Below, in pieces: positions 19,200-23,106 of a stretch of DNA of 64,000 bases. Below the pieces are notes generated by a model. It was given only the letters and a program-made list of their open reading frames with translations, searched no databases and had not been told where the DNA came from. The position numbers were made by a program, and so were the translations under genes. Each line of letters starts with the position of its first letter. Position 1 is the first letter of the stretch. The DNA comes from an uncultured delta proteobacterium (GTDB lineage: Bacteria > Desulfobacterota > Binatia > UBA9968): NCBI GenBank assembly GCA_963771465.1, contig CAVYTU010000001.1, positions 32,001-96,000 on the forward strand, given 5' to 3'.

Positions 19200-19297
19200 A
19201 AAAGATATACCGTGTAATTCACTCCATCAACATCCCCTCAATAATATCCGAAGCGCCCTTCTCCTCATCTCCGCGACCGTAACGGAATCACTTAACG

Positions 19298-20455
19298 CTA
19301 GAAATAGCGCCATAGCCACCATTTCTCAAAACCGATTTTAGCCCAGTAGATTAACTTTGAAGGACCCAGCGTTCTTGGGTCTGTTACTCCGAATGGCGGC
19401 CAGCCGGTCGGATAAGTCGTTCGATTTGCCGCGGCGCGTCCAGCGCCGAACGCCAGCAGTCATATGGTATGGAGCCATAGATCGACCGGCCGTCCTTTGC
19501 CGGTGATCTCGACGGCCAGATTCTGCGCCAGCACGTCGGCTTCTTGATGCGCCACGCCGCCGGCTTTTGACGCCGGCATATCGGCGCAATCGCCGATTGC
19601 GTAAACGTTGTCCCATTTGGTTTGCAACGTGTCGTAGTCAACGCGGATGCCCGTTTCCGTATCGGCGAGGCCGCTGTCGAGTAAAACCTGAGCCGGCCGA
19701 TGTGGCGGCACCATGACCAACAGATCGTAGGAAATATTGTAATTATACAAACCTTGGACGATTTTCTTTTCCGGATCGATGGCACGCACCACGAACTCAT
19801 AATTCTGCTTGATGCCGCGACGCTTGCTTTCCGCGTCCATCCACACGACCGGATCATGGGCTTCGCCAGTGGGCTCGGCCTCACGGGTAAAATACTCGAT
19901 CTCGACGCGATCGCGAATGCCTTTGTGACGGAAATAGCCGTCGAGCATCCACTGCGCCTCATAGGGCGCCGGCGGGCAGCGATAAGGACCAAGCGGTACG
20001 CCGACAACTACCCTGCCACCGCGAAAACTCGCCAGGCTGTCACGCAAGCGAACCGCTGACTCCATTTCCCAAGGATGCTGCGACGATTCGGCGAAGCCAG
20101 AAACCAAATCGGGTCGCGTCTGCAAGCCGAGAGAAACGATGAGATAGTCGTAGCTTATTTTTTCTTTTTCCAGGGCGATTTCTTGGCGCACGGGATCGAT
20201 GCCGTTGATCTCAGATTGAACTACTCTAACGTTGCGTTTTTCGAGAATTTTTAGACTGCGGCTGATATCGTGCGGCTGGCGCTCGCCGAGCATGACAAAA
20301 AGAAATGCCGGCATAAAAATATGATCAGGGCGGCGGTCGATTAGAATAACGTCATGATCGGCGCCGAGCTTGCGACCCAACTGCGTCGCGGCCACGACAC
20401 CGCCGCAGCCGCCGCCCAAAATGACGATTTTCTTGCGTCGCGATAAAAGTTGCAT
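19298..20455 (-). CDS. Sulfide:quinone oxidoreductase-like flavoprotein (type III-like), probable selenoprotein with UGA at 19460-19462
   Basis: Motifs GGGCGG, CPPAPYE, VYAIGD and KAGGVAHQEA. Reading through the TGA adds LLAFGAGRAA...PSKLIYWAKIGFEKWWLWRYF*, the normal SQR-type C-terminus, giving 385 aa. Confidence 0.85.
19427..19458 (-). promoter_or_regulatory. Candidate bacterial SECIS hairpin
   Basis: Directly 3' of the UGA: lower stem UGCUG/CGGCA, upper stem GCGUUCG/UGGACGC, and a G-initiated loop GCGC. Confidence 0.55.
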
Positions 20456-20463
20456 GTCGAAAA

Positions 20464-20670
20464 TTACGCCAGGTTTTCCTTGTCGCCGAAGCGCTGCTTT
20501 GAGCGTTGAGCCAAGCCTTGCAGGTTTCTCAATCGCTGCTCGCGCCAGAGCCTCTGTTCTTTTTTACCGTCGGCAGTGAGCTCTTTGCCGAAACCGGAGG
20601 TCGAGCGCAAAAGCCAAATCATCAGCTTGTCAGAAAGGTCTTTAATCCATTCCATAAGGTTCATCCGCAC
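20464..20670 (-). CDS. Small hypothetical protein
   Basis: 68-aa ORF filling the gap between the aldolase and SQR genes and ending 8 bp before the SQR start. Amphipathic N-terminus. Confidence 0.45.
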   Translation of the reverse strand: MRMNLMEWIKDLSDKLMIWLLRSTSGFGKELTADGKKEQRLWREQRLRNLQGLAQRSKQRFGDKENLA

Positions 20671-20719: not shown

Positions 20720-21688
20720 CTATCTGAGGAAAGTATCGATTTGCCTTAGCTTTTCGCTGGCATCGAGCAAACCTTGCGGGGTTGGGCCCGCTTCGCCGAT
20801 CAGTCCGACTTGACGCAGAAACTGACCGATCTGTTCATGGTCGCGCGGACTGACAGGCGTGTAAGGACGGCAGGGATTACCGATATCGACGCCGAAATGT
20901 TTCATCGCCGACTTCATCACCGGCGGCAAGCCATAGGCGCCCCACTTGCCCGGGAACAAGGCATAGCAGCGTGCCCAAAAGCGCGCCGTGTCCAGATCGC
21001 CGGCGCGAAATGCTTTGACGATCTGCGCGCCGATACGAGTGCCTGGAGGCGGCATGGTCGCACCCGATCCACCGAGCATCAACGTCACCAGCAACGGCTG
21101 CATTGTCGTGAAATAATGGCCGCGGCCAGCGAGCTCGATTTGCTCGATCAATCGCGAGATTTTCGTAATGTCCCGTGAGCTTTCCTTGAAGTAACGAATA
21201 TTATCGATCTCGCTGATCTTGACGAAGGCATCCTGCGGCGGATCGGCGCCTGGCCCGGGATTGTGATAGCAAGTAACCGGCAACGGACTCGCCGACGCCA
21301 CTTGGGTGTAGAACTCCATCAGCTCCGCGATGGTCGGTTGCCCGCCCCAGGGGCGAAGCGGCATCAGCACTTGAATAAAATCGCCGCCCACTTTCGCCGA
21401 GTAGTCGGCCAGTTCGATGACTTCGCGTGGCGCCGGGCTGGAGCAACCGAGTATCACGGGAACACGTTTGGCGATCATTTCGGTGGCGACTTTGAGAACT
21501 TCTTTGCGCTCGTCGCGCGACAGCATTGTGTATTCGGCCGCCTCGACCGCGGCGACGGTGATCGCGTCGCAGTCAGGCACGAGAAATTCAATTTCTTTTT
21601 CGAGCGCCTTGTAGTCGATCCGATCCTGTTCGTCGAAAGGCGTCAGGCATGCGCCGATGATCCCGCTGATGGGTTTGGTTGTTGCCAT
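20720..21688 (-). CDS. Dihydrodipicolinate synthase/class I aldolase family protein
   Basis: Motifs LTPFD, RVPVILG, CYHNP (Tyr) and YFKESS (Schiff-base Lys). The GTTGE motif is replaced by AVEAAE. Confidence 0.85.
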   Translation of the reverse strand: MATTKPISGIIGACLTPFDEQDRIDYKALEKEIEFLVPDCDAITVAAVEAAEYTMLSRDERKEVLKVATEMIAKRVPVILGCSSPAPREVIELADYSAKVGGDFIQVLMPLRPWGGQPTIAELMEFYTQVASASPLPVTCYHNPGPGADPPQDAFVKISEIDNIRYFKESSRDITKISRLIEQIELAGRGHYFTTMQPLLVTLMLGGSGATMPPPGTRIGAQIVKAFRAGDLDTARFWARCYALFPGKWGAYGLPPVMKSAMKHFGVDIGNPCRPYTPVSPRDHEQIGQFLRQVGLIGEAGPTPQGLLDASEKLRQIDTFLR

Positions 21689-21692
21689 AACG

Positions 21693-22349
21693 CTAATTCA
21701 AAACTTCCGCGATGATGCGCGCGTGGCCGGCATCGCTGCCTTTGATGCGTAGCGGCAGCGCCATGATGCGCGTGCGTTTGCCGATGATGCTGCCGATATT
21801 GGTGACGTTCTCCGCGATCAAGACATTATTGCCGAGCAGTGTGCGATGCACCGGAAAATCAAATCCCTTGGGTCTCAGCGGCGTCGGCAGATCGACGGTG
21901 ATGCAATCGATGCCGAACATCTTGATGCCCTTCTTGACCATCCATTCGGCGGCGTCGACGGAAAGATAAGGATGCAGATTGTAATCCGGGCTATCGAACT
22001 TCTCGTCCCAGCCTGTGTGAAGCATGAGAATATCGCCGCGATTGACCTCGACCCCGGACGATTCGAAATCCTTGGCCGTCACTTCTTCGCCGCCGTTCTT
22101 CTTCACGCTGACCACCGCGCCGGTGCCGACGAAGGCGTCTATGGGCAATTCGTCGATCGATTTGCCATTGGCAACGATGTGAATCGGCGCGTCGACGTGA
22201 GTGCCGGCGTGGCACGGCAACGAGAGTTCCGTCACGTTCAGCGGATGGCCCTTTTCCAAGCTCAAAAATTTTGTTACATGAACATCCGGTAAGATCGGAA
22301 TCTTCGGCATGCCGTCATAAATCACCCTAGATAGATCGATCATTTCCAT
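21693..22349 (-). CDS. Cyclase / kynurenine formamidase family metal hydrolase
   Basis: Motifs IDLS, HAGTHVDAPIH, LHTGW and IAEN. Confidence 0.92.
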   Translation of the reverse strand: MEMIDLSRVIYDGMPKIPILPDVHVTKFLSLEKGHPLNVTELSLPCHAGTHVDAPIHIVANGKSIDELPIDAFVGTGAVVSVKKNGGEEVTAKDFESSGVEVNRGDILMLHTGWDEKFDSPDYNLHPYLSVDAAEWMVKKGIKMFGIDCITVDLPTPLRPKGFDFPVHRTLLGNNVLIAENVTNIGSIIGKRTRIMALPLRIKGSDAGHARIIAEVLN

Positions 22350-22365
22350 GGCCGATTCTCCTTCG

Positions 22366-23106
22366 TCATTTTCCCCCGCGCCAGCGCGCGTAGAGAGGAT
22401 CTTTATCGACAAACGCGCGCTTGATACCGTCGAAGGCGAGCCAAAACTGATCCAACGTCTTCTGCACCGAAGCGCGCACGGCGACCTGCTGCGGTTCGCT
22501 TACTGCATAACGTTCCACAGCTAGCGGTCCAACTTTCATATGTTCTTCGTCGACACCCATATGCAAAGTCCAGTAGCGAATATCTTCAGACTCGCGATTG
22601 AAACCGTAATGCTTGGTGAGCCCATTGACGATGCGAGTCATGCGCTCGTTCGCAGTTCCTTCGAGGCAGAATCCCTGACACGCATATAGCTCCAACCAAC
22701 TGCGTTGGAACATCAACAATTCGCGCCAATCGAGAAAGGCTTGGGTCTCGGGAGTCGGCTCAACCCGATCGAGCTCTTCTTTGCTCCAGCCACCGGCTTT
22801 GGCGAAACGAATGAAAAGCTGCTTATGGCTATCGGTTCCAGTGATCTCCCCTGTCCCCTCCTCGACAACATTCTCAATCCACATCTTTTCCAACTCGGGA
22901 TCGTCAGGACAGCGCGCCAGCATCGCCGCGATCGGTTTCGGAAAGGGTTTTGGGAAGAACAAATAAAACTGTCCAATGAAACCCTTGAGCGCATCGCGAT
23001 CGAGTTTGCCTTCCTCGATCATGGCGATAATCGGATGATCCTTCGAATGCTTAGCGCGCACTATCTGCTGGATCTCTTTAATAAACTCCGTGCTCGATTT
23101 TGCCAT
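22366..23106 (-). CDS. Heme-oxygenase-like diiron (TenA/PqqC/CADD) protein
   Basis: Ligand pattern EE...H (VVEEGTGEITGTDSH), LEG and HMGVDEEH. Confidence 0.8.
   Translation of the reverse strand: MAKSSTEFIKEIQQIVRAKHSKDHPIIAMIEEGKLDRDALKGFIGQFYLFFPKPFPKPIAAMLARCPDDPELEKMWIENVVEEGTGEITGTDSHKQLFIRFAKAGGWSKEELDRVEPTPETQAFLDWRELLMFQRSWLELYACQGFCLEGTANERMTRIVNGLTKHYGFNRESEDIRYWTLHMGVDEEHMKVGPLAVERYAVSEPQQVAVRASVQKTLDQFWLAFDGIKRAFVDKDPLYARWRGGK

Follow-up and report, generated by a model that had tools for sequence, protein, structure and literature searches.

A separate, order-wide clade of predicted selenocysteine-containing SQR-type flavoproteins in uncultured Binatia

Described seleno-SQRs and the solved enzymes

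In the six-type classification of SQRs, type III is reported for, e.g., Caldivirga maquilingensis and Methylacidiphilum (PMC10205796). A Sec subtype of type III SQR, with selenocysteine (Sec) in the motif HxxU, was predicted in 2025 (Xiao & Zhang 2025, PMC12013277), and the catalogue table of a review lists the NF049943 family with the motif HxxU and credits it to deep-Sep (Zhang et al. 2026, PMC13188914). In this study, we found in the window, which is the whole stretch of 64,000 nucleotides that was analysed, a gene that the evidence supports as a conserved selenoprotein gene of the kind already described in 2025, and which belongs to a separate, order-wide clade missed by current models and annotations. 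Database proteins 86-88% identical to the query carry the source label Candidatus Binatia. Our literature search returned no paper on selenocysteine or selenoproteins in Binatia or Binatota, and the groundwater-MAG selenoprotein survey of Deng et al. 2026 (Cell Rep) may list the clade.

Like the members of NF049943, the predicted protein belongs to the SQR superfamily with the same domain layout, has its putative Sec in the same column with His at position -3 (HxxU), and has Cys forms alongside the Sec forms. However, although NF049943 (SQR_III_seleno) is its best NCBIfam match, the score is 265.5 bits (259.3 bits on DNA) against a curated cut-off of 525, which lies within the range of ordinary Cys homologues (363 for P0128 and 255 for P0127), whereas the NF049943 member P0159 reaches 525.3 even in truncated form. 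This member is about 36% identical to the protein described here. Around the shared column, NF049943 has DGHAT-U-MVVTG in its Sec forms and DGHST-C-FIVTG in its Cys forms, and this gene has LHTI-U-LLAFG. The hairpins behind the UGA differ: the one here has 6 bp, the loop UGGAC and a distance of 11 nt, and that of NF049943 has 8 bp, GGUC and 17 nt. In the order that carries this gene, only the Sec form was found among the genomes of the class sample, whereas the NF049943 rows over the cut-off comprise 7 with and 13 without a TGA. The label "type III" for this gene comes solely from the name of NF049943.

Among solved enzymes, the best relative is human mitochondrial SQOR (type II; 6oi5, 6oi6, 8dhk), with an E value of 2.5e-35, 25% identity and a Foldseek TMq of 0.83, followed in sequence similarity by the Acidianus enzyme, flavocytochrome c sulfide dehydrogenases and the Aquifex enzyme. 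In human SQOR, Cys201 and Cys379 are reported to be joined by a Cys-S-S-S-Cys trisulfide carrying the bridging sulfane sulfur, the acceptor groove leads to Cys379, which faces the acceptor channel, and a C-terminal membrane helix is present (PMC12589024). Sequence alignment pairs Cys201 with Cys160 of the protein described here and Cys379 with its codon 332, so that the human enzyme has Cys at both positions whereas this gene has Cys160 and the TGA. Type I SQRs (Aquifex aeolicus 3hyv, Acidithiobacillus ferrooxidans 3t31 and related) share the fold over nearly the full length (TMq 0.86), albeit with weaker sequence similarity (E 1e-18 and 1e-11); the Foldseek alignments to the human, Aquifex and Acidithiobacillus enzymes cover about 385-410 columns. 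Type I enzymes have a third Cys linking FAD, and no aligned counterpart of it was found in this protein.

The read-through gene, its redox pair and its hairpin

The open reading frame 19460..20455 on the minus strand starts with ATG at 20455 and has 331 codons, ending in ...LWLHTI, before the TGA at 19462..19460. Past this TGA, 53 further sense codons (LLAFGAGRAAANRT...KIGFEKWWLWRYF) follow in frame up to the TAG at 19300..19298, exactly as the first-pass annotation of this DNA had read it. The features of the gene are as follows.

19298..20455, minus strand: read-through coding sequence of an SQR-type flavoprotein with predicted Sec at codon 332, 385 codons plus TAG (frame, Pfam, match to human SQOR, structural model)
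20399..20419, minus strand: N-terminal dinucleotide-binding glycine motif GGGCGGV, residues 13-19 (Pyr_redox_2 and NAD_binding_8 matches)
19976..19978, minus strand: TGC codon of Cys160 in CPPAPYE, the first redox Cys (aligned with human SQOR Cys201)
19460..19462, minus strand: in-frame TGA, U332, probably read as Sec in place of the second redox Cys (alignment, 30/30 loci)
19449..19459, minus strand: spacer of 11 nt between the UGA and the hairpin (sequence and RNAalifold consensus)
19432..19448, minus strand: SECIS-like hairpin CGGCGC-UGGAC-GCGCCG, with a stem of 6 bp and a loop of 5 nt (consensus structure from RNAalifold for 30 orthologues)
19301..19459, minus strand: tail after the UGA, 53 codons, residues 333-385 (pN/pS, structural model)
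19304..19357, minus strand: Trp-rich C-terminal helix, residues 367-384 (AlphaFold2 model)

The read-through protein carries the Pfam domains Pyr_redox_2 and FCSD_central, and G14 and G19 of the glycine motif are invariant in a 59-sequence alignment (A3). The two-dinucleotide-binding-domain flavoprotein fold and the FAD motifs that mark the SQR family are thus found by Pfam, by modelling and by Foldseek alike. With the 59-sequence alignment as input, AlphaFold2 gave a model with a mean pLDDT of 94.2 and a pTM of 0.93. In this model residue 332 lies within strand 329-337, and the tail supplies the rest of this strand, the strands 340-347 and 358-366, and the helix 367-384. Since U332 lies inside a strand and the tail forms two more strands and a helix, a product of 331 residues would, according to the model, be without part of its fold. 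The Trp-rich helix 367-384 is likely, by analogy, to bind the membrane. Work on the Caldivirga type III enzyme reportedly relates its C-terminal helix to membrane binding. The C-terminal helix of SQRs is likewise described as binding the membrane in PMC12589024.

The proposal of the first-pass annotation was that Sec occupies the second catalytic Cys position, which raises the question of what homologues have in this column. We aligned the query with P0106 and the 150 best representatives (152 sequences in total), the library being 1.84 billion 50%-identity cluster representatives. The column of codon 332 is Cys in 110 of the 125 other sequences having a residue there, the column of the first Cys is Cys in the large majority, and 109 of the 152 aligned sequences have Cys at both redox positions; in A3, C332 is at least 90% conserved. 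Furthermore, P0106 (385 aa, 71% identical) is a natural Cys form that reads LHTI-C-LLAF without a gap. The homologues, including human SQOR with its Cys379, therefore do have Cys where this gene has TGA, and this column, together with the conserved TGA and the Sec machinery described below, supports the proposal. Judging from these comparisons, the TGA at codon 332 very probably encodes Sec. The existence of the natural Cys form P0106 means that Sec is not indispensable. The tail behind the TGA had also been taken for the expected SQR tail, and this is borne out by its fusion through Cys in P0106 and by the strands and helix of the SQR fold that it forms in the model.

The hairpin had been placed directly after the UGA and given a loop with G in first position. 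A GC-rich hairpin is indeed present, but it does not follow directly, since the 11-nt spacer 19459..19449 lies in between. The loop in the window is UGGAC with G second, whereas in four of the 30 orthologues (L033, L038, L049, L050) the loop closes to a 3-nt GGN with G first. The spacing of 11 nt and a G in the loop match the bacterial SECIS consensus. Folded alone, the hairpin has a dG of -8.4 to -11.9 kcal/mol in all 30 loci. A 17-nt hairpin of -10.6 kcal/mol or lower at the same spacing occurs at 24 of the 127,920 window positions on both strands, and one of -8.4 kcal/mol or lower follows 4 of the 2,039 TGA triplets of the window, including this one; none of the other three TGA-plus-hairpin sites of the window lies in an open frame. 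A hairpin of this kind is thus rarely expected by chance.

The stem of the hairpin also codes for the conserved peptide G-A-G-R-A. Among 69 fourfold codons with invariant first two bases, the third base is kept in at least 27 of 28 orthologues in only four, and three of these four frozen third positions are those of the codons +5, +8 and +9, which are exactly the third positions within the stem. The loop codons +6 and +7 show three or four different third bases among the orthologues. RNAalifold detected no compensatory double changes in the stem across the 30 loci, where the changes seen are three single wobble-compatible ones and one broken terminal base pair, so that the structural support comes from the frozen synonymous sites and not from covariation. 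With its 6 bp the hairpin is also short, the 81 nt around the UGA fold no better than shuffles (z = +0.78), and an Rfam scan of 19250..19550 gave no relevant family. From the frozen sites and the spacing, we infer that the hairpin is a candidate SECIS which would direct Sec insertion.

Conservation of the TGA and the readings of this codon

Conservation of the TGA among relatives had been named as a check of the Sec proposal. Matches at the DNA level were found in 53 of the 61 related genomes. One TGA is present in each of the 52 matches that extend across codon 332 (68-100% protein identity). These come from 51 of the 61 genomes, which belong to ten genera in three families of a single order, and the five rows without a stop are matches not reaching codon 332. 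In the 30 loci that were fetched, among which one (L048) has a frameshift further upstream and another (L035) ends at a contig edge, LHTI-TGA-LL is present in 30/30, and the check favours the proposal. Two of these loci, L044 (G005) and L047 (G035), are from genomes flagged as unpublished, and without both of them all counts hold (28/28), so that no conclusion depends on these two loci. The Ile codon preceding the UGA is ATA in 28 of 28 orthologues. When the class was sampled evenly, 18 of the 19 genomes belonging to the three families of the order had the TGA form, and these 18 orthologues with one TGA are additional to, or overlap with, those above. The TGA form was not found in the other families of the class sample, where two genomes have Cys forms of 35% identity, and no close homologue at E <= 1e-80 was found outside the order in 300 other genomes sampled across the phylum.

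The tail is conserved as a protein sequence. In pairwise comparisons of 28 gap-free orthologues (378 pairs), the mean pN of the tail is 0.080 as compared to a pS of 0.589, and the corresponding values of the gene body are 0.131 and 0.680. Because pN is far below pS, the tail is under purifying selection, which indicates that it is translated in this frame. Synonymous sites around the TGA are saturated (pS about 0.6), and the TGA is invariant. As a separate observation, the SQR gene is frameshifted (L048, G020) or split (G021, G026, G045) upstream of the TGA in some genomes, which may reflect assembly error or decay.

The source genome (6.9 Mb, 19 contigs) contains the complete Sec machinery that had been named as a prerequisite. 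The genes selA (614 bits), selB (359 bits) and selD (376 bits) lie in a row on another part of the genome outside the window (C14:197319-201637), and a tRNA-Sec is present (76.7 bits), which ARAGORN calls tRNA-SeC with the anticodon tca. The selD gene of this genome itself holds one in-frame TGA, so that selenophosphate synthetase would also be a selenoprotein here. Among the relatives, selA is above the cut-off in 56 of 61. On the same contig, at C14:13177-14205 on the minus strand, a translation-factor-like GTPase (L007) scores 85.7 bits to the selB model, below the cut-off, and has one in-frame TGA, which may be a candidate recoding site, the border of two genes or a frameshift.

Databases list a shorter protein. 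Of the 120 nearest database entries, 118 have a length of 331 aa and one has 327 aa, P0106 alone being full length, which is the truncation by automated pipelines that the first-pass annotation had expected. If the TGA were a genuine stop, the product would be a protein of 331 residues and the 53 downstream codons an untranslated remnant, and the 119 matches annotated at 327-331 aa, along with the fact that TGA does terminate in these genomes, would fit. However, annotated lengths are a product of gene callers and not evidence of termination. Moreover, purifying selection on the tail is as strong as in the gene body, the tail is kept in frame down to 68% identity and is fused through Cys in P0106, and in the model it makes three strands and the helix of the SQR fold. 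We consider a genuine stop very improbable. The concern that the TGA at 19460 is a sequencing or assembly error, or that the gene is a recent pseudogene, carries practically no weight: the frameshifted and split copies mentioned above would fit it, but 51 separately assembled genomes of ten genera share the TGA in this gene, its position is verified in 30 loci, and it is unchanged throughout despite saturated synonymous sites. Sequencing error is thereby excluded.

Read-through into another residue calls for different evidence. If UGA were decoded as Trp, Cys or Gly, through near-cognate decoding or a variant code, this would by itself account for the conserved tail, and the hairpin could merely slow the ribosome. 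On the other hand, the column is that of a redox Cys, the classic Cys/Sec pair, the source genome has the full Sec machinery and most relatives have selA, and the spacing of the hairpin matches the bacterial SECIS rule. In addition, this very gene ends with TGA in 8 of 28 loci, which means that TGA is still a stop in these bacteria and that the code is not changed. Decoding as one of these other residues is therefore, in our view, only a slim chance. We hold it highly probable that the gene encodes a 385-residue FAD-dependent SQR-type enzyme in which UGA 332 is recoded to Sec through SelB and tRNA-Sec, as directed by the hairpin.

Proposed function, neighbourhood and origin of the Sec forms

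In the proposed mechanism, SelB with Sec-tRNA(Sec) would bind the hairpin while the ribosome stands at the UGA, and Sec332 would be inserted. Sec332, in the position of the C-terminal redox Cys, and Cys160 of CPPAPYE would then flank the flavin. Sulfide would be oxidised, with its sulfur held on a Cys-S...Se-Sec bridge, and electrons would pass from sulfide to FAD and on to a membrane quinone, while the sulfane sulfur would exit from the Sec side and the Trp-rich C-terminal helix would anchor the enzyme on the membrane. The chemistry at Cys160 and Sec332 is put forward by analogy to the Cys201/Cys379 pair of the human enzyme.

The genes around this locus bear on the question of the reaction. 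Upstream of the SQR gene, the following run of genes lies on the same strand.

20464..20670, minus strand: ORF of 68 aa ending 8 nt before the SQR start, with no Pfam match and possible system membership only
20720-21688, minus strand: DHDPS family gene, upstream of the 68-aa ORF
21693-22412, minus strand: cyclase family gene, in the same-strand run
22366-23106, minus strand: haem-oxygenase-like/TENA family gene, in the same-strand run

Downstream of the SQR gene lies a convergent TPR gene. The 68-aa ORF is found upstream of the SQR gene in 30/30 loci with 54-100% identity (tblastn), and the DHDPS gene is adjacent in 30/30 loci with 68-97% identity, above the conservation of the SQR itself in most of the 30. 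Among the 15 ORFs at 12.5-29.8 kb, within about 8 kb of the gene, no sulfur-metabolism partner (persulfide dioxygenase, rhodanese, TusA/DsrE) was found. This result, the conserved neighbours and an identity of only 25% between the clade and any solved SQR would suit a Sec flavoprotein of the SQR fold that carries out another reaction, such as redox chemistry of selenide, persulfide, polysulfide or another thiol or selenol. Along the same line, human SQOR is reported to oxidise selenide (bioRxiv 10.1101/2023.04.13.535674), and the crystal entry 3sz0 is an A. ferrooxidans SQR-selenide. Such a reaction is compatible with Sec at codon 332. Nevertheless, the protein is SQR-like in its two redox positions, its FAD motifs, its fold and its C-terminal helix, and the nearest named family (NF049943) is an SQR, so that we regard another reaction as rather unlikely and continue with the SQR-type reading.

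The relationship of this gene to other Sec forms was examined in a quick FastTree tree of 130 sequences with midpoint root. The query clade (support 1.0) contains three other proteins ending at column 331, and the Cys form P0106 is nested within it; its sisters are three Cys proteins (support 0.91). P0159 falls into another clade, which has 13 members, ten of them Cys forms (support 0.995). This gene and the NF049943 members did not group together in the FastTree tree but form separate clades with many Cys forms between them. A further candidate lineage comes from a Planctomycetales MAG, in which an SQR homologue (L064 1501-2620; JAKEIC010000039.1, P0225) also carries a TGA in this column, with 47 codons of an SQR-type tail behind it. 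It shares with this gene the TGA column, a strong GC-rich hairpin and a genome with selA, but belongs to a different clade, is 33% identical and lacks His at -3 (DGAAS-U). In its nearest relatives, which are about 50% identical, the TGA column is occupied by Cys or His. Judging from its end at column 331, P0164 may also be a Sec form. For P0186, which represents another truncated lineage, no locus was found in the genome contigs.

The separate clades, their Cys-form relatives and the different hairpins make independent gains of Sec likely, albeit not proven by a quick midpoint-rooted tree. We see about an even chance that the C-terminal redox Cys of SQR-type enzymes was replaced by Sec several times independently, in this order, in NF049943 and in the Planctomycetales lineage. 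If so, the fact that Sec is now the sole form in this order (18 of 19 sampled genomes) would point to a real catalytic gain from the mixed sulfur-selenium bridge at the acceptor-facing position, and the enzyme may work with the 68-aa protein that is always adjacent. Since the same Cys position would have turned into Sec in at least three separate lineages, SQR would be a handy natural system for studying Sec in persulfide and trisulfide chemistry.

For annotation, the predicted consequence is that 119 of the 120 closest entries lack the catalytic Sec, three strands and the likely membrane helix. These truncated entries would not be rescued by the curated NCBI model, because the clade scores half of the NF049943 cut-off. 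For the bacteria, the SQR-type reading would mean that the only close SQR homologue of a whole uncultured order depends on selenium, and that sulfide handling is tied to selenium supply in soils and groundwater. Two other genomes of the same phylum (G332 and G360; L054-L063) each contain an NF049943-type SQR in two copies, one with Cys and one with Sec, and these copies are natural paralogue pairs for a comparison of Cys and Sec.
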